A DNA stretch of 64,000 nucleotides from Gemmatimonadota bacterium (GCA_040389905.1 JAZJZK010000005.1:192001-256000); one strand, 5' to 3'. Shown: positions 41,125 to 53,574, counted from the stretch's first letter. Translations and numbers: made by a program. Notes: generated by a model from the sequence alone, not told the origin.

Positions 41125-44100
41125 CTGATCGATCTCCGCATCGCACGCCGCGCATGTGTTGCCGTTGTCGCCTCCGCCGTCGCCGTCACGACGTCGGCCG
41201 TTCTGCCATCCAGCGCATCCGCACAAGGTTCGCTTGCGCTGAATGTTTCGGACAGCGTGCAGCTGTCCGTCGTTCGCGGCCGAACGCTTCGCATTCCGAT
41301 TCTCGTTGTCCCAGCGGGGGGCCTGAGTATTGCCGCGCTCCAGAGCGATGTCATCTTCGGCACGACGCGGCTGCACTTCGACTCACTGACGACCGGCCCG
41401 TTCGGTGTGCTGACGCCGAACACTTCGAACGCCGCATCGGGCGCCCTCGTTCTCAACGCTTCGCGTGGGAGCGGCCAGACGGCGCGCGACACGATCGCAA
41501 ACGTGTTCTTCACCGCTGCCAACGACCGCACGAACGCGCTGTCCTTTGAGAACCTCGGCGGTTCACGAATCAGCGCTGCGCCAACGTCCGCACAGAACGG
41601 AACCGCTGCGAGCATCCTTGCCAGCGTGGTTCCGCGGCAGCTCGATGTCTGCGTCGTGAGCGGAGCATGGGGCGACATGAACGATGATGGCGTCGTCAAT
41701 ATCATCGATGCGCAACAGATTGCCCGGTATTCCGTTGGCCTGTCGGTGGCGAACAATACCGCCGTGATCCAGCGCGGCGATGTAACGGCGGACGGCAACG
41801 TCAATATCATCGATGCACAGCAGATCGCGCGCTTTTCCGTTTCGCTGTCGGCGGTCGCGAGAATCGACACACCGGTGTTCATTCCCGCGGCGGTGGCGAG
41901 CATGACTGCGTCGCCTGGTGGCACGCAGACCGTCGCCGTAGGCGGAATGCAGCAGCTCACCGCAGATCCCAAGAATGCCGATGGCATGTCCGTCGCTGGA
42001 TGTGCACTGGTCGCGTGGTCCACCTCCAATCCCGGCACGGCAACGGTCTCCGCCAGTGGACTGGTGACGGGCATCGCCAACGGAAGCACCGTCATCACCG
42101 CCACGAGCGGTGGGCAGACAGCGAATGTCACCGTCAACGTCGCCCCCACAGGCGGTGGGAGCGTGACTGCAATCGAGTTCGTCGATGACGTAGACCAGTA
42201 CAGCTACACGACTGAAAGTGTCCCCTTTGAGGTGCGAGCCGTGAACGCCGTGGGAGGGACTGTGCCCGGCGCGACCATCACGGTCTCCGTGACGAGTGGA
42301 ACGGCAATACTGTATGGTCCGAGCGGAGTCGTGTCGACGCTGGACCTCGTCACCGACGCGAGTGGTTACGCCACCGCGCCCGTGTACGCCGGCTCTGCCG
42401 GAACGTCCGTCCTCAGCGTCTCTGCGCCGGGCGTCGCTCCCAGAACGGCGTCGCTCACCGCGATCACGCGCTTCCTCGGTCAACACGTCTGCATGGGGAA
42501 CTACTGGTCGATTCGCTGCTGGGGAAACAATTCGCTCGGACAACTCGGCAACGGGACGACGAGCACCAGTATCGACCCCGTGAACGTGAATCTCTCGGGC
42601 ATTGCGCTCGCGCTTCCGCAAACAAAGGTGAGCGTCAGTCAGCAGGGGATTGGCGATCACACGTGCCTGCTCGACGACGCGGGCCAGGCATATTGCTGGG
42701 GTTCGAACACGGCGGGCCAGCTTGGCGACGGCACCCGCGTGAACAAGAGCACTCCGACCGCAGTCAGCACCGCGCTGCGATTCACGACGATTGCGACCGG
42801 TAGCGAACACACCTGCGCGTTGACGAGCGGCGGGGAGATGTATTGCTGGGGTTTCAACTTCTATGGTCAGCTGGGGGACGGCACCAAAACGCGAATTCGC
42901 GTTCTGCCCACGCGCGTCAGCGCACCGGCGGGCGTGACGTTCGCTTCGATGACCGTAGGGACGGCGCACTCGTGCGCGATCGCGCAGACTGGTGCGCCGT
43001 ACTGCTGGGGCTCGAATGCGAGTGGCCAACTCGGCGATGGCACGCAGATCAACCGCGCGCTTCCGGTCGCGGTCACGGGGTCACTGTCACTCAGCTCGAT
43101 GACTGGCGGTGACTCCCACACCTGCGGATTGACCGCGGCTGGCGCGGCATGGTGTTGGGGCAACCGCGCGGCGGGCACGATGGGCGACGGGGGCGGGTCG
43201 GCGTTGTTCCAGCCAGTGCCCACTGCCGTCGCCAACGGTCATGTCTTCCAGTCCATTCACGCTGGTTATCTCTATACCTGTGGAGCGAAGGTCACAGGTT
43301 TGGTTTGGTGCTGGGGGGGCGGGAGCGGCTACGGTCGGTTTGGCGACGGGACGATCATAGCGAACTATGTCGTGCCGACGCTGATTGCATTCACCGGCAA
43401 CGCGATTCACGTGGGAGGATTCAATAGCGCGATTTCCGCCCTGGCCACCTGTGGGTTGACGGAGGTCACGCGGCAGGTGATGTGCTGGGGCAAGAACGAC
43501 CAGGGCTATCTCGGCAACGGGACGACGGATCATAGCACCCTCCCGACCGTCGTGCCGCAGGCCGGTGTCACGGCGGGAACGCCGGGCGCAGTGCAACCCG
43601 TTGTCCCTGTCGTCCCTGTTACGCCTCCGAGCGTCACCGCGGGTACCGCTGTACCACAGTCTCCAGCAATTCTGCTACGCGATCGACTGGGCAATCCGAT
43701 CGTGGGCGCAACGGTCGAGTTCCTGGTGACGGCGGGTGGCGGGTCCGTGGCGAACGCCTCGGCGGTGACGGACGGCGTCGGGCTGGCGAGCAGCGGCACT
43801 TGGACGCTTGGACCGACGCCAGGGTTCAATACCCTCACTGCGCGCGTCTCAGCATTGGCGCCAGGAGGGGCGACAGGTTACGCGCGCCACGTGTTCGCTG
43901 CATTCGGCACGAGCGCGCCCGCGACCATCACGATCGTTGCGGGAAACAATCAGGTGGCGCGCGCCACCCAGACCTATCCAGGCGCGCTGACCGTTCTCGT
44001 GACGGACGCAGCATCCGCGCCGATTCCGAACGTGCCCATCACGTTCGCCATCGGTTCAGTGAGCGGATTGAGCGGGTTGATTGTGTCGAGTCCGGTCCTG

Positions 44101-47100
44101 ACCGATGCTGGCGGTCGCGCGAGCACGTTTGCAAGCTCGGCTTCCTCTGCGCAGTCGTATACGATTACAGCGACGGGCGTCGGCCTCGGCACCGCTACTT
44201 TCACCATGCGTGCGGCGCCGCTCTTCAACAACGGTGTGAACTGCGAATTGACATCCAGTGGTGCGGCGTACTGCTGGGGCTCGAACGATCACGGGCAGGT
44301 CGGTGACGGCACGACGACCACGCCACGGACTTCGCCAACGGCCGTAAGCGGAGGCGTCACCTTCGCCTCGCTCGCAGATGGGTCGGGAGACCACACGTGT
44401 GGTCTTACAATCGCGGGCGCCGCCTGGTGCTGGGGATCGAATGCCTTCGGTCAGCTCGGGGACAACACCATCGTCGATCGGTCGGCTCCAATACTCGTCA
44501 GCGGCGGACTCTCGTTCACGAAGCTCGTCGTCAGCTTCACCAGCACCTGTGGCCGAACGTCCGCCGGCGCGCTCTATTGCTGGGGCAGCGCAGGGCACGG
44601 TATCTACGGCGACGGCGAGCTCGGCACGATTCGCATGACGCCCACGGCAGTAACAGCGGTCGGTCTCGTGTTCAGCGATTTAGCGATGTATGCATCCGCC
44701 TCCGGATCGCACCTCTGCGGATTGGCCGCCGCAGGCGCAGCGTACTGTTGGGGCCTGAACGATGCCGGCCAGCTTGGCGACGGCTCGTTCACGAACCGTC
44801 TCACGCCGACGGCCGTCTCTGGTGGTCTCGCGTTCACGAAAATCGTAGCGGGAGACCGCGTGACGTGCGGGCTCGCAACCTCCGGTCAGGCCTATTGTTG
44901 GGGATTCGGAGCCTCCGGGCAATTGGGCAACAACACAACATCCGTCTCCGCGACGCCTGTTACAGGGGCCACGAACTACAACTTCGTGGCGCTCTCGAGT
45001 TCCGGTGCGTCGGTCTGTGGCATCACGAGTGCTGGGGCGATGTACTGTTGGGGAGCGAACACCAACGGTCAGGTTGGCGACGGGACGCTGGTAAACCGAT
45101 TGCAGCCAACGCGCGTGGAAGGAGGTGTGGCTTTCGGCGCCGTTCGCGCGCGAGTCGCCACGACGTGTGGTCGCGCCGCGGGAGGTGTTGCGCCGGTGTA
45201 CTGCTGGGGCAACAACGTGAATGGTCAGGTCGGCGACTTTTCGGTGGTCTCTCGCGCGACTCCAGTCGTGGTCAGCTGGCCGGAAGGCAGCGCAGGAGTT
45301 CCCGTCTCGCTGGCGATACTCGCCGGGAATCAGTCGGGCTTCGCCGGCGGCGCGGCATCACCAGCACCCTCCGTCGTCGTGCGGGACTATGCGGGCAATC
45401 CGGTGAGCGGCGTGAGCGTGACCTTCACCGTGAGGTCTGGCGGCGGCAGCGTAACGGAGGCGACGGCGATTACCGGGGCGACTGGCTTGGCCACGGTCGG
45501 CAGCTGGGTCTTCGGTGCCGCTGGGCCGCAGACGCTTGCCGCAACAGCGCCGGGCTTGCCGACGGCAATTTTCAGTGCAAGCGCCGCAGCCTTCACCGAG
45601 TCGTCGATTTCATCACTGTACCGGACGGTTTGGGGAGCAACGGCAGGATGCACCGACTGCGTGAATGTCCAGGCGCACGCGCTCGCCGTCGAGAACTACT
45701 CGGCGCTCGCGAACTCCGCGATGAACATCCGCTCAGCCATTCCGCGCGTCGCCATTGGCAATGATCCATCCGAGCCCACAGCCGCGGCGAACTTCTCCAC
45801 CTTCTCCTCGCTCACTGCCGCCGCGCGGACGGCCGCCAATAGTATCCAGGCGTTGAACAGCCTTGCGGGTGCCGGAGGGGGCGCGTCTAACGCATTGGGC
45901 TCAAAGGCGCAGGATGCGCGCGCTCGTGCGTTCGCGTTCTTCAGTTCCGGGCTGGCGCTCGGCAATCTTGCGATTGCGTATGATTCCGCTGCGATCATTA
46001 CGTCGACGACGTCCTCGGCGACCAACCCGCCGTTGTCGGGATACTTCGCCGTCAGCGAGGCGGCGCTTCGCATGCTTGACTCAGCACTCGCGTGGGCAAC
46101 AAGCCCCGACATCACGAGCGGCGCGAATGGATTCCCACTGCCGAGCACGTGGATCAATGGGAATCCGTTGTCGCAAACGCAGTTCGTGGCACTCGTGCGC
46201 GCGCACAAGGCGCGGTTCCGCGCGGGTGTCGCTCGTTCGCCGGCGGAGCGCGCCGCGGTGAACTGGACGCAGGTGATCGCCGACGCGCAGAGCGGCATCA
46301 CGTCGAATTTCGCAGTGACCCTGAACTCGAGCGCTGGTTGGTCACACAGTTCGACGTTCGACGTCAACTTGGCGTACACGTCGGCAGCGTGGCATCAGTT
46401 GAGCATGTTGATGTTAGGCATGGCTGATACGAGCGGTGCGTATGCGAGCTTCATCGCGGCACCGTTGGCGACACGGGATGGGATGTTCCTCGTTCGTACG
46501 CCAGACTTGCGCTTCCCGCAAGGTGCGACGCGCGCCGAACAACAGGCCGACACACCGCCGCTTGTCCCGCTACCCGCGCAACGCTACATCCGGAATCGCG
46601 CGGAGGGCTCGGATGACTTCTCCGGGTTCGCATACGGCCGCTCCTTCTACGATTTCCGTCGATGGCAACTAGTCATTCTGCTGGGCGGAAGCGGACAGTG
46701 GATTCAGATGTCCAAAGTCGAAAACGACATGCTGGCGGCGGAAGGGATGATCCGAACGGGCAACTATGCCAGTGCTGCGTCCTTGATCAACGCGTCGCGC
46801 GCGGCGCATGGGTTGCCGGTGATTACGACGTTCAATAACACCTCACCAGTTCCAGGCGGCAACGCCTGCGTTCCGAAGATTCCCGTCGGACCGGCGTACA
46901 ACACCGTCGCCTGCGGAAACATGTTCGAAGCGCTCAAGTGGGAGAAGCGCATGGAGACGATGTACTCGTGTTCCTTCATGTGCTGGTTCACCGACAGCCG
47001 CGGCTGGGGCGATCTACCTGAGGGCACTCCCGTTCACTGGCCGGTACCGTATCAGGAATTGGACGCCCGCGGCAAGCCGCGTTATCAAATGGCTGGCTCT

Positions 47101-47127
47101 GCGAATAAGGGCGCCTACGGCTGGTAG
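41125..47127 (+). CDS. Tandem paralog of the giant cohesin-dockerin-Ig-RCC1-SusD protein; start codon uncertain
   Basis: Colinear with 35035-41034. The signal-peptide region (LIDLRIARRACVAVVAS...SAQG) lies upstream of the first GTG at 41257; the position matching the paralog's ATG is AGG (41122), followed by CTG (41125). Confidence 0.75.
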   Translation: MIDLRIARRACVAVVASAVAVTTSAVLPSSASAQGSLALNVSDSVQLSVVRGRTLRIPILVVPAGGLSIAALQSDVIFGTTRLHFDSLTTGPFGVLTPNTSNAASGALVLNASRGSGQTARDTIANVFFTAANDRTNALSFENLGGSRISAAPTSAQNGTAASILASVVPRQLDVCVVSGAWGDMNDDGVVNIIDAQQIARYSVGLSVANNTAVIQRGDVTADGNVNIIDAQQIARFSVSLSAVARIDTPVFIPAAVASMTASPGGTQTVAVGGMQQLTADPKNADGMSVAGCALVAWSTSNPGTATVSASGLVTGIANGSTVITATSGGQTANVTVNVAPTGGGSVTAIEFVDDVDQYSYTTESVPFEVRAVNAVGGTVPGATITVSVTSGTAILYGPSGVVSTLDLVTDASGYATAPVYAGSAGTSVLSVSAPGVAPRTASLTAITRFLGQHVCMGNYWSIRCWGNNSLGQLGNGTTSTSIDPVNVNLSGIALALPQTKVSVSQQGIGDHTCLLDDAGQAYCWGSNTAGQLGDGTRVNKSTPTAVSTALRFTTIATGSEHTCALTSGGEMYCWGFNFYGQLGDGTKTRIRVLPTRVSAPAGVTFASMTVGTAHSCAIAQTGAPYCWGSNASGQLGDGTQINRALPVAVTGSLSLSSMTGGDSHTCGLTAAGAAWCWGNRAAGTMGDGGGSALFQPVPTAVANGHVFQSIHAGYLYTCGAKVTGLVWCWGGGSGYGRFGDGTIIANYVVPTLIAFTGNAIHVGGFNSAISALATCGLTEVTRQVMCWGKNDQGYLGNGTTDHSTLPTVVPQAGVTAGTPGAVQPVVPVVPVTPPSVTAGTAVPQSPAILLRDRLGNPIVGATVEFLVTAGGGSVANASAVTDGVGLASSGTWTLGPTPGFNTLTARVSALAPGGATGYARHVFAAFGTSAPATITIVAGNNQVARATQTYPGALTVLVTDAASAPIPNVPITFAIGSVSGLSGLIVSSPVLTDAGGRASTFASSASSAQSYTITATGVGLGTATFTMRAAPLFNNGVNCELTSSGAAYCWGSNDHGQVGDGTTTTPRTSPTAVSGGVTFASLADGSGDHTCGLTIAGAAWCWGSNAFGQLGDNTIVDRSAPILVSGGLSFTKLVVSFTSTCGRTSAGALYCWGSAGHGIYGDGELGTIRMTPTAVTAVGLVFSDLAMYASASGSHLCGLAAAGAAYCWGLNDAGQLGDGSFTNRLTPTAVSGGLAFTKIVAGDRVTCGLATSGQAYCWGFGASGQLGNNTTSVSATPVTGATNYNFVALSSSGASVCGITSAGAMYCWGANTNGQVGDGTLVNRLQPTRVEGGVAFGAVRARVATTCGRAAGGVAPVYCWGNNVNGQVGDFSVVSRATPVVVSWPEGSAGVPVSLAILAGNQSGFAGGAASPAPSVVVRDYAGNPVSGVSVTFTVRSGGGSVTEATAITGATGLATVGSWVFGAAGPQTLAATAPGLPTAIFSASAAAFTESSISSLYRTVWGATAGCTDCVNVQAHALAVENYSALANSAMNIRSAIPRVAIGNDPSEPTAAANFSTFSSLTAAARTAANSIQALNSLAGAGGGASNALGSKAQDARARAFAFFSSGLALGNLAIAYDSAAIITSTTSSATNPPLSGYFAVSEAALRMLDSALAWATSPDITSGANGFPLPSTWINGNPLSQTQFVALVRAHKARFRAGVARSPAERAAVNWTQVIADAQSGITSNFAVTLNSSAGWSHSSTFDVNLAYTSAAWHQLSMLMLGMADTSGAYASFIAAPLATRDGMFLVRTPDLRFPQGATRAEQQADTPPLVPLPAQRYIRNRAEGSDDFSGFAYGRSFYDFRRWQLVILLGGSGQWIQMSKVENDMLAAEGMIRTGNYASAASLINASRAAHGLPVITTFNNTSPVPGGNACVPKIPVGPAYNTVACGNMFEALKWEKRMETMYSCSFMCWFTDSRGWGDLPEGTPVHWPVPYQELDARGKPRYQMAGSANKGAYGW

Positions 47128-48220: not shown

Positions 48221-50620
48221 TCATGTCCGTAGGACCTCCGACGGCTCGATGGTGAGGAACTGCGCGAGTGGCGCGCTCACACCGACCGTCGCGCTCATCG
48301 CGACCGAGACAACGCAGAGCACAATGGACAACCCGAGTGGCGGCGAGGGTGTATTCCTAAAGACACCCCCCAACCTCATCAACACAAGCGCGAATGGAAG
48401 TCCTGCAGCGATGCCGACTCCGACAGCAATGGCGATCTTTCGCATTTCATGAAGTGCAACCTGCACATGAGATCCTCCGACGGCCAGCGAGATGGCAATT
48501 TCGCGTCGTCGATTGGAAATCACACTCAAGCTGGCGCTTGCGATACTCGTCAGGCATGCAACGAGCGAGACCATCGCGCACAACAGGAAGAAGCGCACGC
48601 CGGTTCGCAACGGCCGTAATCGCTCCTCGAAGTCACGTCGAACGGAACGGACAGACTGAACCTGCTCCGGCCCGGCCACCGTCCTGACGAGCTCTTGCAC
48701 ATCCCTCAGAACCTCTGCTGTGGGTCCAAGGGCTCGGAATACGATCCCGTTCGACGCGCGGCGCCCTGTGGAGAGCGGTTCATAGAGCATGATCGGGTTC
48801 TTCAGTCCGGATCCCGACAAGTCCGCATCGTCTACTGTGCCGATGATGGAGATGCATGACCCGTCGGGAACGCCGACTCTCACACACCCGCGCGCCAAGG
48901 CTCGTGGAAAAAATCTGCGCCTTGCGGACTCACTCAGGAGTGCCACATCAGCTCCCGCGCGCCACTGCGCGAAGCCACCGTCGCCAGTCCAGTGAACTGG
49001 AAGCTGCATCACACGAAAGAATGCCGAGTCGACTTGGTGGACTTCTGCTGGCGCGGATTCGGCCGTGGCGGCGGCAATGTAGAGCACTGCCATGCTAAAT
49101 GACCGCGCCGGAAGCGCAGAGACCTCGCTGACACCATCGACTCCCGGACGGCGCTTCAATTCCCTCGAGATATCAGCGAGGAGGCTGCCGCGCGGACTCA
49201 CAAGGTTGGACACCGGCGCAACGCTGTAAACGTGTGCGATGTCGTATCCCCATTCTATTCGACTGGCTGCCCGTAACCGCAGGCTGGAAAACGCCGTCGT
49301 CAGCACGAGCACCGTGACAAGCGAGACTTGGGTGGCGAGAAGGCCATAGGAGGTCCGTGACAGCGTGACCGAACCTAGTCGAGCGGCCTCGAGGACTTGG
49401 CGCAGCTGAACCCGTGATCCGAAGTGGAGGGCGGGCAGTATTGCACTGAGTAGGGCGGCGAGTATCACGACTGCCGTGAAGTAGTTCGTGGTGATCGCGC
49501 GTCCACCATCCCACAGACCAAAGGTGTCAATCGCGATTCTACCAAGGAAGAGTCGTTCAAGGCCTAGCCCCACGAGCGAGCCCATGGCAACGGCAACCAG
49601 CCCGGCGACGCTGGACGCCATCACAACTTGTGCTGGGGTTGCTCCGTGCACTTCGTGCAACAACCATTTGTGAGAGGACGCGAGTCGTTGCAACGCGAAG
49701 AGTTGCGTGGTGTTCGAAATGAGAAGGAGTGCCAGACAGATGGACGTCAGCACGGACATCAAGAGCAGACTCGCTTTCAGGTCGCGCTCAATCCCGAGTG
49801 ACATGTTGAGGGGACGAAATCGCAGGGACTTGATATCGAAATCGACCTCGTTCGACGCAAGGCGACTCTGGAGGACGTTGATGGTCCTTTGCGCGTCGCC
49901 GCCACCGGGATAGCGAGCGACGGTGCGAAGCCACTTTGCGTTGCCGGTTAGCCACACTGCGGGAATGCCGATGGCGTCCGCTGACTCGAGTGGAATGAAC
50001 AGGTCGGCAGGTTGCGCATTAATGCCTCGGAAGTCCCTGACCACGGCCTGCACAGTCCATGGTATTCCATTGACACGGACAATCGCGCCGAGCGCCGACT
50101 GGGGCGAGGGAAAGGTCCTTCGGACAAAGTGCTCCGAGACAATTATTGCACGGCGCTCGTTCCGCCACCGCATGGGACCCGCGAGGCTGGTACTTCCAAG
50201 GAGGCTCAAGAAACCCTCCGATACGACGGCAAGTTCCTCCTCCTCTGGACCCGCCGTGCCCACCGAGACGATGACGGACAGGGAGCCATAGGCTTCGACA
50301 CCAGTCAGGACGTCCACGGCCGCATGGCGCATGGCGTCGACTTCCACGCGGGAGAACGAAAGCGACGAGACTGGAAACGCTTCCCGCCCGTGAATTGCCG
50401 AAATTCGTTTCAGACTGCTCGCGTCCTTGACGCCAGGAATGTTCGGGTCGAACACGAGCATCGCCACGTCAGTCACCGCAGTGAACACTGCGATGCACAG
50501 CGCAGCGAAGAGGGCGACGTACGCGCCGAACAGCACGCCGCTATATCGGTCGGCGACCAGCGTTGGCCAATAGCCCAAAGCCCTACGAAACGTCATTCCG
50601 GCATCTCTTGCCAGCGACAC
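48221..50620 (-). CDS. Duplicated MacB/FtsX-type (ADOP-like) permease, divergent
   Basis: Two periplasmic-domain plus TM halves; VSEGFLSLLG, IVSEHF, RRREIAISLAVGG, IEPSEVLR. No ATPase gene adjacent. Confidence 0.75.
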   Translation of the reverse strand: MSLARDAGMTFRRALGYWPTLVADRYSGVLFGAYVALFAALCIAVFTAVTDVAMLVFDPNIPGVKDASSLKRISAIHGREAFPVSSLSFSRVEVDAMRHAAVDVLTGVEAYGSLSVIVSVGTAGPEEEELAVVSEGFLSLLGSTSLAGPMRWRNERRAIIVSEHFVRRTFPSPQSALGAIVRVNGIPWTVQAVVRDFRGINAQPADLFIPLESADAIGIPAVWLTGNAKWLRTVARYPGGGDAQRTINVLQSRLASNEVDFDIKSLRFRPLNMSLGIERDLKASLLLMSVLTSICLALLLISNTTQLFALQRLASSHKWLLHEVHGATPAQVVMASSVAGLVAVAMGSLVGLGLERLFLGRIAIDTFGLWDGGRAITTNYFTAVVILAALLSAILPALHFGSRVQLRQVLEAARLGSVTLSRTSYGLLATQVSLVTVLVLTTAFSSLRLRAASRIEWGYDIAHVYSVAPVSNLVSPRGSLLADISRELKRRPGVDGVSEVSALPARSFSMAVLYIAAATAESAPAEVHQVDSAFFRVMQLPVHWTGDGGFAQWRAGADVALLSESARRRFFPRALARGCVRVGVPDGSCISIIGTVDDADLSGSGLKNPIMLYEPLSTGRRASNGIVFRALGPTAEVLRDVQELVRTVAGPEQVQSVRSVRRDFEERLRPLRTGVRFFLLCAMVSLVACLTSIASASLSVISNRRREIAISLAVGGSHVQVALHEMRKIAIAVGVGIAAGLPFALVLMRLGGVFRNTPSPPLGLSIVLCVVSVAMSATVGVSAPLAQFLTIEPSEVLRT

Positions 50621-50644: not shown

Positions 50645-51658
50645 CTATCGTGTCGACGGATGAAGCTCGGAGATATAGCGCCCGTGAAGCACGAAGAGCC
50701 GCTTGCCCTTCGCGGCAATCCAGCGGGACACCCATGGCAATTCGTACGAGCCCACGTACTTACCGGAATGAATCGAATAGCGGTCGATGACACGCTTCGC
50801 CAGCGTGCGGTCCTTGCCGGCGTAGAGGACCACAACCTCGGTATCGCGCAATGCGATGGAGACCGCCGTCTGAACCGCGGCACCAAGGATCTCGTCTGTC
50901 TTCCTGGCCTGGGTGCGCCGAATCACATCGGGAAAGTTCGTCGATTCGATGAATCGTCCGCGAGTCAGAGCACCCGCGCTGGTGTCGAGTACGACAAAGC
51001 CGTCGCCAAAGGCAAAGCCAAAGACCCAATGCTCGAGCCTGTCGTCGGTCGCCGTCCATCCCTGTCTCATAAGAGGGCGCAGCGCCGAAAAATCGGCGGA
51101 GGGAAATGCGTTACGGGACAGCCGTTTTCCCTGATTGTCAAAAATCACGAGAGGCGCCGCGGAGTCGGTGGTCACCGCCGCAAAGCGATTGCCGGTGAGC
51201 GGAACAAACGCATCAATGTCATCGACCCCGAACGGTGAGATACTGCCACCGGTTCGGCCTCTGGGGTCAACGGTGATGAGGCGATTCGCGCCCACGAGCG
51301 CAACAAGTGTGTCGTGCCCCGTAGTCGTCAGACCAAGGAGCGGGCTCTCTTCTGCGGCGCCAATGTCCGTTCCCCACAGCCGCCGACCATTCTTGTCGAG
51401 GGAGGTAATCCGGGTCCTTCCTTCGAGAAACGCGAAACCCTGATCGGTAGCAACGAGATGTCTCATGGTGCGATAGGTGGTGTCCGATCCAGGAACCGCA
51501 ATCGAGTCGAACGTCGTGCCGCTGAATACTCGATGAGCGGAATCGCGCGTCGAAGTCTCGTGAGGGGCCCGTACCACGCTGACGCGTGCTGACTCGCGTT
51601 CGCACGAGACAACCGCCAGTCCACCTACAAAGAACAGCCTCAATATTCTAGGAGCCAT
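50645..51658 (-). CDS. Beta-propeller lipoprotein (6-bladed/TolB-like)
   Basis: GAGGA ribosome-binding site; lipobox LAVVSC; blade motifs LDKNG, VDPRG, FDNQG, IDRYS..SGKYVGSYELP. Confidence 0.65.
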   Translation of the reverse strand: MAPRILRLFFVGGLAVVSCERESARVSVVRAPHETSTRDSAHRVFSGTTFDSIAVPGSDTTYRTMRHLVATDQGFAFLEGRTRITSLDKNGRRLWGTDIGAAEESPLLGLTTTGHDTLVALVGANRLITVDPRGRTGGSISPFGVDDIDAFVPLTGNRFAAVTTDSAAPLVIFDNQGKRLSRNAFPSADFSALRPLMRQGWTATDDRLEHWVFGFAFGDGFVVLDTSAGALTRGRFIESTNFPDVIRRTQARKTDEILGAAVQTAVSIALRDTEVVVLYAGKDRTLAKRVIDRYSIHSGKYVGSYELPWVSRWIAAKGKRLFVLHGRYISELHPSTR

Positions 51659-51759
51659 GTGATCGCTTCCTCGGTTTGTCTGGCTAGCTAAGAGCGTACC
51701 GCATCGCATCCAGGCACACTCAACGCGAGGCATGTGGCATCCCAATATGCCTTCCTCCG

Positions 51760-52308
51760 TCACGGACCTTTTCTGGCACTCAGCGTCTCGATAAAGGAAT
51801 CTGCTGGCGTCTCACTTCCCGGGAGTATCGTCCGGAGAACCAGTCGCTCATCAAAGAGCAGCGTGACGGGAAGCGACGCAACGCCGAGGAGCGCGAGTGA
51901 GTGCCCCACCTTGCGCTCGGTCAGGGCTCGCACAGGGAAGTGGAAGCCGTAGGAGGCGATGATCTCGTCGGCCGGCACCTCCTCCCTTTCGCCGATGATA
52001 AGGATGCCTTGTACGTCGGCCCGTCTGCCTCTGCTGACGACGTTCCATCGATCAATAATCTCGAGTGCTCCTGGGCAATCACCGGCGCGAAAAAGAAAGA
52101 TGATATGCGGTCGCGATTCGGCCACGCCGGAAGAAGGCTGGGCGAGAAGGCTGGAAATCGGACGACCCAATCCGATCACCTGTTGGCGGAGGATAATGGC
52201 TTCCGCCAAAATGGCAATGACAGCAACAACGCCTACGGCCGTCGAAAGGCGCATTAGGACAGCATCTTTCGCCGCTGAGCGCTGAGCGCCGGATCCGAGT
52301 ATCGACAT
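51760..52308 (-). CDS. Membrane-anchored thioredoxin/peroxiredoxin-like protein with a single Cys
   Basis: N-terminal TM segment; IIFLFRAGDCPGA at the CxxC position; FHFPV; LGVASLPVTLLFD cis-Pro loop. Start may be 52254. Confidence 0.6.
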   Translation of the reverse strand: MSILGSGAQRSAAKDAVLMRLSTAVGVVAVIAILAEAIILRQQVIGLGRPISSLLAQPSSGVAESRPHIIFLFRAGDCPGALEIIDRWNVVSRGRRADVQGILIIGEREEVPADEIIASYGFHFPVRALTERKVGHSLALLGVASLPVTLLFDERLVLRTILPGSETPADSFIETLSARKGP

Positions 52309-52367
52309 CAACCACAGAACTGGTTAGCGTGCCCCGCTGGCAACAGGCGTACTCAACTGGTCGCCTT

Positions 52368-52415
52368 GCAAGCGCGACCGCATCCCGAGCAGGTGGTGCG
52401 TGCGGTCGCGCTTGC
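52368..52415. terminator. Strong hairpin downstream of the peptide genes (attenuator or mRNA stabiliser)
   Basis: Perfect 15-bp stem GCAAGCGCGACCGCA / TGCGGTCGCGCTTGC, 18-nt loop, no U-tract. Confidence 0.55.
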
Positions 52416-52443
52416 GAAGTGAGGGTTCCCCGAGCAGAGGAAG

Positions 52444-52668
52444 CTAGAACATGGTGTAGTAATCCGTAAACGTGACCCACTGATCACAGACGCCATTCGA
52501 CACGTGGCTGCAGTAAGTCGACGTCCTGCACTTCTTGAGGATACCGTCCGCACAGGAGTCCTCGGCCTTAAGGATGCTCCGCGACGAGAACGAAGGCACA
52601 GCCAGAACCGCTCCCGCCACCGTAAGGACTACGAAACTGAACTGCACCAGACGCTTAAGTTGCGTCAT
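52444..52668 (-). CDS. Secreted 4-Cys peptide A (74 aa)
   Basis: GAGG ribosome-binding site; signal peptide ending ILKA; EDSCADGILKKCRTSTYCSHVSNGVCDQWVTFTDYYTMF; paralog adjacent. Confidence 0.85.
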   Translation of the reverse strand: MTQLKRLVQFSFVVLTVAGAVLAVPSFSSRSILKAEDSCADGILKKCRTSTYCSHVSNGVCDQWVTFTDYYTMF

Positions 52669-52744
52669 TGCCGACCTCGGGTAGATGATGGTACTCAATG
52701 CCACGGCCGTTCCACACACGTTGTGTGCGTCTCGCTGGCGCGGA

Positions 52745-52966
52745 CTAGAACATCGTGTAATAGAACGTGAGCGTGGTATAACCTTGGCAGACACCGTTGT
52801 ACCACTGAGCGCAGCTGGTCTGTTCACGGCACTTCTTCAGCAAGCCGTCAGCGCACGAGCTGTCAGCACGGAGCTCCTGCTTTTGAGATACAGCTGGCGC
52901 AATCGCGATCGCACTGATTGACGCGGCGAGCGCCAGCGTGATCGAAAGCCCCTGAATTTTAGTCAC
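52745..52966 (-). CDS. Secreted 4-Cys peptide B (73 aa)
   Basis: AGGAG ribosome-binding site, GTG start; signal peptide ending ELRA; DSSCADGLLKKCREQTSCAQWYNGVCQGYTTLTFYYTMF. Confidence 0.85.
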   Translation of the reverse strand: MTKIQGLSITLALAASISAIAIAPAVSQKQELRADSSCADGLLKKCREQTSCAQWYNGVCQGYTTLTFYYTMF

Positions 52967-53030
52967 TCTCGCTCTCTCCTGTTTAGAGTCAGTAAACGCG
53001 TCTTACCACCGGGCGCCTTTGGTAGCCGCG

Positions 53031-53060
53031 ATTGTAATGCCCCGGATCCACTTCTGTCAA
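53031..53060 (-). promoter_or_regulatory. Near-consensus sigma70 promoter of the peptide operon
   Basis: Minus strand TTGACA (53060-53055)-N18-TACAAT (53036-53031), about 65 nt upstream of peptide B. Confidence 0.7.
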
Positions 53061-53325
53061 GGAACCGTTTCTTCCCCCAAGTAAAATGTTAGAATGAGAT
53101 GACCGATCCTCCGAGAGCCGTCCCGCGTGTAGTTGATGCTCAAGCACTGGCGCCTCCAATCGCTCCCGGGATCCCAAAAACAGTCGCGATGGGCTCGGGC
53201 TCGAGCTCATAGATGGCGCAGGGGAACATTCTCCAATGGACTTGAGTTTCATCACCCTCAGGACTTACAATGGATCAGGAGGCCGCTAGGTCCCAACCTC
53301 ACGTGCCGATCACCGGAGAAGCAGT

Positions 53326-53574
53326 ATGTCTGACGGGCTAGTTCTTCTTATCGCATTCTGTGCGCTCGTAGCGCTGAATAGCATCGTCAAGGTAGTCGTG
53401 GCCATACTTTCTCAGCGACGTGACAAGGGCGTCGCCGTTCTCGAGGCGGAGATCAGGCGCTTGTCCGAGCGGGTGCGAGTGCTCGAGGAGTATCGAGAGG
53501 GTAGCGAGGCAGAAGTAGAGAAGTTGAACGATGCCAACGTGTTCCTGGAACGGCTACTGGCGAATCGTGACTAG
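53326..53574 (+). CDS. Small single-TM protein with coiled coil
   Basis: GGAG ribosome-binding site; hydrophobic N-terminus; LEAEIRRLSERVRVLEE heptads. Confidence 0.6.
   Translation: MSDGLVLLIAFCALVALNSIVKVVVAILSQRRDKGVAVLEAEIRRLSERVRVLEEYREGSEAEVEKLNDANVFLERLLANRD

Follow-up and report, generated by a model that had tools for sequence, protein, structure and literature searches.

We describe a gene cassette of Gemmatimonadota in which genes for small cysteine-rich peptides stand beside genes for a thioredoxin-like protein and an NHL-type beta-propeller lipoprotein. The cassette lies in a window of 64,000 nucleotides (nt) from a Gemmatimonadota bacterium (GCA_040389905.1 JAZJZK010000005.1:192001-256000); the window is the whole stretch of DNA analyzed, and positions are counted from its first letter. 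Positions 52444-52966 correspond exactly to two paralogous peptide genes, here called pepA and pepB, of which pepB is the first in transcription order. The peptide gene(s), the thioredoxin-like gene, and the propeller gene form a conserved trio that recurs across Gemmatimonadota. By sequence, the peptides belong to a Gemmatimonadota family of predicted secreted four-Cys hairpin peptides, the variant seen here being marked by a thioredoxin fold with one active-site Cys. On balance, we favor the reading that a dedicated extracytoplasmic module folds and holds the peptides as its clients. In this picture, the reality and paralogy of the peptide genes, the folds of the two partner proteins, and the conserved association of the three genes are established. 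A preliminary description of this DNA dealt with the peptides and did not include their operon partners (the thioredoxin-like protein, the propeller lipoprotein, and a permease), which are the main functional clue. The two peptide genes are as follows.

52745..52966, minus strand: pepB, GTG start, precursor of 73 amino acids (aa) with a putative signal peptide (predicted cut ELRA/DSS) and a 39-aa four-Cys core ending in YYTMF
52444..52668, minus strand: pepA, ATG start, precursor of 74 aa with a putative signal peptide (predicted cut ILKA/EDS) and a 39-aa four-Cys core ending in YYTMF

That these are two real paralogous genes on the minus strand, as had been claimed, is borne out by a BLASTP alignment of their products with 27/50 identities (E = 7e-20). 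Read directly from the translations, both mature parts have 39 aa and fit the proposed scaffold xxS-C-ADG(I/L)LKK-C-R-x4-C-x4-NGV-C-x8-YYTMF. The alignment has 74 columns with 31 invariant positions, of which 8 fall within residues 1 to 35 and 23 within residues 36 to 74. Nucleotide identity across the 39 codons of the mature part is 67%, 72%, and 41% at codon positions 1, 2, and 3, respectively, and the proportion of synonymous differences (pS) is 0.76, which is saturated, so that dN/dS cannot be expressed as a ratio, against a proportion of nonsynonymous differences (pN) of 0.31. Because of this contrast and the codon-position pattern, we regard pepB and pepA, on the strength of their sequences, as tandem paralogs from an old duplication that was retained as protein in this frame, in agreement with the earlier claim of real proteins under purifying selection. 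Shine-Dalgarno-like sequences precede both starts (AGGAGA for pepB and GAGG for pepA). Public protein sets (sources NCBI and Logan) already hold pepA (P0001, 74 aa) and pepB (P0002, 73 aa) at these lengths; the genes have therefore not been missed or misstarted by automated gene callers, as had been feared. No Pfam or NCBIfam model matches either peptide.

Both N termini have a basic n-region followed by a hydrophobic stretch of 17 to 18 residues, and neither contains a double-glycine leader site. Removal of the signal peptide probably occurs after L-K/R-A, just before the first Cys. In an alignment of 16 peptides, 15 share an Ala-ended site lying 2 to 15 residues ahead of the first Cys and the remaining one has a Ser-ended site, which fits such a cut. 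The Leu at −3 is unusual, as is the c-region of ~11 residues.

The two partners that complete the trio are encoded downstream of the peptides on the same strand.

51760..52311, minus strand: thioredoxin-like protein, 183 aa, membrane anchored, with a single active-site Cys (D78-C79, DCPGA, no CxxC) and a cis-Pro (P148)
50645..51658, minus strand: six-bladed NHL-type beta-propeller lipoprotein, 337 aa, with the lipobox VVSC; the frame is open to 51763

The thioredoxin-like protein matches no Pfam or NCBIfam model at threshold and gives a weak match to ResA (E = 0.047 and 0.027), while its look-alikes in the ESM Atlas are Redoxin/TlpA clusters (features, 0.95; structure, template modeling [TM] score of 0.62 to 0.70). 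It shares with TlpA, ResA, and DsbE the membrane anchor, the fold, and the cis-Pro loop and differs from them in that CxxC is cut to one Cys: across 10 homologs, C79 and P148 are invariant and D78 is kept in at least 90%, and a second active-site Cys is absent from all 10.

A profile of the propeller family searched against PDB sequences retrieved the NHL repeat of Thin (4.4e-35) and also TRIM71 and TRIM2/3. The AlphaFold2 model, with a predicted local distance difference test (pLDDT) score of 83.4 and a predicted TM score of 0.82, had NHL domains as its top Foldseek matches (TM of 0.64 to 0.69 by target), including the NHL domain of Brat (E = 1.2e-11; TM of 0.59/0.69). As modeled, the protein is an NHL-repeat six-bladed beta-propeller, and we take its conserved RVIDRY to be the usual motif of such repeats. 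No Pfam model matches the window propeller, and a word-indexed search with it found only its own 273-aa public form, whose start is probably too far downstream, since the lipoprotein start with the lipobox VVSC gives 337 aa.

The linkage of these genes extends across the phylum. In G118, a genome from another genus of the same family, peptide, thioredoxin-like, propeller, and ADOP-type permease genes follow in the same order, and in G008, from the window's genus, two diverged peptides each adjoin one of the partners. We scanned loci consisting of a thioredoxin-like gene and its 1.5-kb flanks, counting propeller and peptide genes on the same strand; a candidate counted as a peptide if, within 45 to 140 aa, it combined at least 4 Cys, the pattern C-x6-8-C-x4-8-C, and an Arg content below 10% with a basic n-region and a hydrophobic run. 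Among 30 loci, a propeller was present at 26, a peptide open reading frame (ORF) at 21, and both at 20, and 20 further loci gave 16, 13, and 11, respectively. The totals for the 50 loci are thus 42 with a propeller, 34 with a peptide ORF, and 31 with both, the peptide counts being lower bounds, as the filter excludes longer forms and several loci end at contig ends. One to three tandem peptide genes occur per cassette. Applied to the whole 5,076,543-base genome, the same filter returned 7 ORFs, 2 of which are pepA and pepB. That the peptides are merely chance neighbors, unrelated to the downstream genes, might be suggested by the 132 nt, including a hairpin, that separate pepA from the thioredoxin-like gene; in view of co-occurrence at 34/50 loci against 7 filter matches in a 5.08-Mb genome, and of the same order in other genera, families, and orders, this is scarcely credible.

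The distribution of the trio is patchy. In the family search, the propeller profile matched in 65/401 genomes and the thioredoxin-like profile (A9) in 31/401 genomes and 12/77 genera; in the phylum search, the thioredoxin-like profile matched in 41/401 genomes and 5/12 families. Peptide, thioredoxin-like protein, and propeller all diverge fast, with ~20 to 30% identity between genera. A signal peptidase S26 gene considered as a further cassette member lies, with a gene for an AraC-type regulator, between the cassette halves of G008 (L019, G008:C339, 6864-8476); it was found in none of 22 other sources searched and is therefore not part of the cassette here. No claim is drawn from the unpublished genome G012, and our literature searches found no paper describing the trio.

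Transcription of the operon would run from a promoter through pepB, pepA, a hairpin, the thioredoxin-like gene, and the NHL propeller lipoprotein gene to a MacB/ADOP-type permease gene, the remaining features being the following.

53031..53060, minus strand: putative sigma-70-like promoter, TTGACA-18-TACAAT, 11/12 consensus positions, ~65 nt upstream of the pepB start
52361..52422, minus strand: GC-rich RNA hairpin, 22-nt arms (52361-52382 and 52401-52422), 86% complementary, no U-tract
48221..50620, minus strand: MacB/FtsX-type duplicated permease, ADOP-like, 799 aa, starting 24 nt after the propeller gene

The promoter is a consensus match only, with four such sites in 5.4 kb compared with a mean of 1.1 in shuffles. 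A search of sequencing runs listed no RNA run carrying the sequence; the only one listed is a DNA run that may come from the source sample. The hairpin has a predicted stability of −39.4 kcal/mol (z = −3.5; 1 of 200 shuffles was equally stable); it is possibly an attenuator or an mRNA stabilizer and may set the ratio of peptide to partner mRNA. No Rfam family was found in 51500-53500, and no hairpin was seen in G118, where the genes abut. The permease matches MacB_PCD (1.1e-11), FtsX, and the ADOP model TIGR03434 (E = 1.4e-46, below the curated cutoff); no ATPase gene lies beside it, and none of the genes neighboring the peptides has an ABC_tran or peptidase domain. In G118 and G092, a permease gene occupies the same position. 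Divergent from the operon, on the plus strand at 53326-53574, is an 82-aa ORF whose product combines a single hydrophobic helix with a coiled-coil-like tail; it has no family match and is absent upstream of the G118 cassette. Farther away, also on the plus strand (41257-47127), is a gene for a 1,956-aa protein in which numerous RCC1 repeats are combined with Big_1/Big_2 domains and a dockerin-type domain.

With regard to relatives of the peptides, a profile of the two sequences searched by HMMER against 1.84 billion representatives retrieved eight proteins at an E value of up to 0.001: pepA, pepB, five peptides of 75 to 80 aa, one of them named "hypothetical protein" from a Gemmatimonadetes metagenome-assembled genome (MAG), which assigns the window to Gemmatimonadota, and a repetitive 915-aa protein (P0003) that was rejected as a low-complexity false match. 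A word-indexed protein search with pepA found only pepA itself, whereas a profile of 26 peptides used in such a search found 21 proteins at an E value of up to 0.001 among 6,355 candidates. None of the 21 has a Pfam domain, and all of those that are named are "hypothetical protein" from Gemmatimonadota/Gemmatimonadaceae MAGs. Longer members of 125 to 155 aa with the same core appear under a laxer filter. Weak peptide matches in G005 and G013, and six of the seven that were translated, proved to be noise on reading, only the one in G118 being real. A pattern scan with a narrower peptide alignment (A8) yielded one partial match, in a Gorillibacterium record, which is spurious, and the same pattern found nothing in metagenome contigs.

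What the family keeps is the pattern C-x7-C-x5-C-x7..-C and a Tyr-rich tail. All of 26 aligned sequences retain C47, C53, and C61, the closest 8 all have C39, and at least 90% of a set of 16 peptides carry Y70. Of the two elements whose conservation in homologs had been expected, the Cys pattern is therefore kept, while YYTMF is private to this genome, the closest form being YYTLFAE in P0004, and only a Tyr-rich tail is shared. The loops between cysteines are variable, as described earlier, differing across the family in both sequence and length, with 7 to ~25 residues between the third and fourth Cys (C3-C4). The suggestion that the aromatic tail with its C-terminal Phe serves as a docking signal fared less well: because only 4 of 26 family peptides end in Phe (6 of 26 end in Phe, Tyr, or Trp), such a signal is not a feature of the family, and neither is the terminal aromatic residue, usually Phe, that marks outer-membrane beta-signals.

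Two further groups of genes resemble parts of the cassette. In Bacteroidales, small NVEALA proteins (PF14055) adjoin genes for DUF5128 "6-bladed beta-propeller" lipoproteins. The ESM Atlas cluster nearest to pepA is an "NVEALA protein" of Bacteroidota (0.83; a lead only), and 6 of 26 members of our propeller family match the DUF5128 model PF17170 (best E = 3.5e-8), the window propeller not being among them. However, PF14055 matched neither of the two window peptides (E up to 10) and none of the 26 family peptides (E up to 1), and the peptides are therefore not assigned to NVEALA; a search of the own genome with PF14055 likewise gave no match, though control genomes were equally silent. No paper on NVEALA or DUF5128 was found in our literature searches. 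Separately, two loci, L081 (G159:C42:10000-29999) and L080 (G198:C1:366000-385000), hold arrays of four to six NHL-propeller paralogs, between which lie genes for another type of four-Cys peptide, C-x7-C-x8-C-x3-C (e.g., ...ACPEVVNEVCNTIDLTEVCGPGC...); no thioredoxin-like gene is recognizable there.

The peptide itself is predicted to be a hairpin. An AlphaFold2 model of pepA built with 16 relatives has a mean pLDDT of 68 (75 to 94 over residues 41 to 70) and places strands at 45-57 and 60-72, joined at the turn N58-G59, which agrees at moderate confidence with the beta-hairpin and NG turn put forward in the preliminary description. In such a structure, the variable C3-C4 inserts would lengthen the hairpin. 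Foldseek found no match for the model in the PDB at an E value of up to 0.001, as is expected of a bare hairpin.

When peptide residues 36 to 74 were modeled together with propeller residues 41 to 337, the complex scored 0.60 (runs of 0.60, 0.53, and 0.67), compared with 0.02 for the best of three controls; contacts agreed between runs to at least 68%, and the pLDDT of the partners was at least 69. The mark used for such scores was reached by 116/157 solved complexes and 2/215 mismatched pairs, of which 18/157 solved complexes and both passing mismatches lay at or below 0.60, so that the prediction lends weak support to binding of the peptide by the propeller. It would suit other arrangements as well. 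It fits sequestration by an immunity protein, too, and it would be consistent with a peptide that stays bound as a disulfide-rich subunit or plug, the propeller complex being a sensor, a binding protein, or an enzyme, by analogy with methylamine dehydrogenase, where the subunit that pairs with the propeller is small and Cys rich and the thioredoxin-like MauD assists. The tight linkage of the three genes would suit such a permanent subunit too, as would the family members of 125 to 155 aa, which resemble small proteins more than released peptides. We nevertheless think it quite improbable: several different peptide genes may accompany a single propeller gene, the strong hairpin after the peptide genes would fit an excess of peptide mRNA over partner mRNA, and no conserved residues of catalytic or cofactor type were recognized in peptide or propeller.

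The reading that we prefer, in which the peptides are clients of the module, can be set out as a sequence of steps. The precursors would be exported by Sec, and signal peptide cleavage would fall a few residues ahead of the first Cys. Disulfides would then be formed by the general DsbA-like/VKOR system of the cell. The genome encodes VKOR beside a DsbA-like protein on C23 as well as two further DsbA-like proteins, with no DsbB found in this 85%-complete genome; given this general oxidizing system, the enzyme of the cassette need not be the oxidant. The NHL propeller is likely the platform that holds the peptide, and the single Cys of the thioredoxin-like protein might attack the bound peptide and shuffle its disulfides via a mixed disulfide. 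As in protein disulfide isomerase (PDI)-type enzymes, a fold that keeps the attacking Cys alone would suit a role as isomerase or holdase, acting through a mixed disulfide with the client. The stapled hairpin might finally stay on the propeller or be passed outward by the permease, which may export the product or protect the producer. The role that we consider likeliest for the finished product is that of a competitor-directed or signaling peptide. In the same genome, at C41:72502-72804 (plus strand), an unrelated signal-peptide ORF with nine cysteines precedes, by ~700 bases, a DsbA-like (Thioredoxin_4) gene at C41:73508-73978 (plus strand), and the two may be another peptide-oxidoreductase pair.

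The presence of that oxidizing system in the periplasm also bears on metal binding by the peptides, for which the preliminary description had suggested assays. Four thiols kept reduced by the thioredoxin-like protein could bind metal or scavenge oxidants in the periplasm, and the four invariant cysteines would suit such a buffer; moreover, a redoxin with a single Cys could act like a 1-Cys peroxiredoxin, and AhpC-TSA clusters are among its ESM Atlas look-alikes. Apart from the oxidizing environment, however, the peptides contain no His- or Met-rich motif and no CxxC pair, and a Cys spacing of 5 to >20 residues with a variable hairpin insert is a better fit to structural disulfides. A metal or redox buffer thus appears very unlikely.

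The pairing of the two partner folds has a precedent. Human NHLRC2 and Arabidopsis SOQ1 likewise combine a TlpA/DsbE-like thioredoxin fold with a six-bladed NHL propeller. The thioredoxin-like active site of NHLRC2 is described as facing the binding face of the propeller, and no conserved neighbors are reported for bacterial NHLRC2 homologs (PMC6107167). NHLRC2 and SOQ1 are each one fused protein, whereas the window has two adjacent genes; in G144 alone (L107, G144:C83) do the thioredoxin-like and propeller parts occupy one open frame, of 620 codons, which may be a natural fusion like NHLRC2/SOQ1 and has no peptide alongside by our filter. The eukaryotic proteins carry the motif CC(I/V)NC (CCINC), whereas the window protein has a single Cys (DCxxx, here DCPGA), as do 10/10 homologs; in addition, the proteins of the window are predicted to be membrane or lipid anchored and are co-encoded with a Cys-rich peptide. 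The likeness recognized is one of fold pairing.

An alternative to a joint folding module is that the peptides are bacteriocins, i.e., secreted toxins matured by the thioredoxin-like protein, with the propeller lipoprotein giving the producer immunity by sequestering the peptide and the permease expelling it, in parallel to LanI lipoproteins, which sequester a peptide at the envelope, and to LanFEG/BceAB-type systems, which expel it. We consider this unlikely while giving it serious weight, as it would accommodate the patchy accessory distribution (31/401 and 41/401 genomes), the tandem diverging peptide copies, and the fast divergence of all three parts. Its layout of a ~40-aa four-Cys peptide and a dedicated thiol oxidoreductase is also that of the bacteroidetocins, a proposed class IIf with a mature form of ~42 aa and four Cys, in which the oxidoreductase is described as needed for full toxin activity (PMC6671954). 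Bacteroidetocins carry a double-glycine leader that a peptidase-domain ABC transporter removes, are accompanied by a five-transmembrane protein, and have no propeller (PMC6671954). The window differs in its predicted Sec-type signal peptides, its NHL lipoprotein, and its MacB-type permease without a peptidase domain, and no sequence likeness between its peptides and bacteroidetocins was found. Pediocin-like class IIa bacteriocins have a YGNGVxC box (YGNGVxCxxxxC) at the N terminus and a double-glycine leader. To these the window peptides show a local likeness only, with W-Y-N-G-V-C in pepB and S-N-G-V-C in pepA at the Cys-closed hairpin turn and "NG-x-C" recurring in some relatives; the motif is central rather than N terminal, YGNGVxCxxxxC and a double-glycine leader are both missing, and the hosts are of Gram-negative type. 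Against a toxin with separate immunity stand the lack of a permease in several cassettes and the small net positive charge of the core (pepA has 3 K, 1 R, 4 D, and 1 E). The pairing of thioredoxin-like and NHL folds is itself an ancient module (PMC6107167), and together with the single frame in G144 this suggests that the two proteins act jointly on a shared client and do not divide maturation and immunity between them.

Several observations nevertheless weigh against a module that folds and holds the peptides. Sequence support for the thioredoxin fold is weak, and the assignment rests mainly on the ESM Atlas; a wider thioredoxin-like profile (A9) searched against PDB sequences gave nothing meaningful, and the weak ResA match was lost. 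The chemistry proposed for this protein is a guess, because a thioredoxin fold with a single Cys cannot by itself complete a cycle of oxidation or reduction. The pepA model derives from 16 sequences with the mean pLDDT given above, and its strand register leaves the cysteines not opposite each other. The complex score falls in a weak band, where passes are more often wrong than right unless binding was likely beforehand. By our filter, 16/50 thioredoxin-like loci are without a peptide, some of them holding longer peptides and some being cut by contig ends. Finally, the transporter varies, being of the ADOP/MacB type in G000, G118, and G092 and an ABC-2 system in G072, with none seen in the cassettes of G099, G384, and G149.

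Few bacterial genes are as poorly annotated as those for small secreted peptides rich in disulfides, and for the ones described here two conserved partners show where to look for a function. Tentatively, the trio could represent a new kind of extracytoplasmic peptide-handling system in which the propeller presents a Cys-rich client to a one-Cys thioredoxin fold, with the hairpin peptides as a new class of secreted bacterial effectors; we offer this as a possibility that is open to doubt. If it is true, the peptides would give the thioredoxin-NHL module its first natural client to which it is linked genetically; for NHLRC2 (human FINCA disease) and SOQ1 (plant photoprotection), the substrates of this module are not yet clear. 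If the peptides are clients of the pair, the cassette would provide a simple bacterial model for how such a module chooses its substrates and acts on them. If the peptides are antibacterial or serve in signaling, they would be the first candidate class of this kind for Gemmatimonadota, with a compact and synthesizable scaffold of ~39 residues and variable loops.

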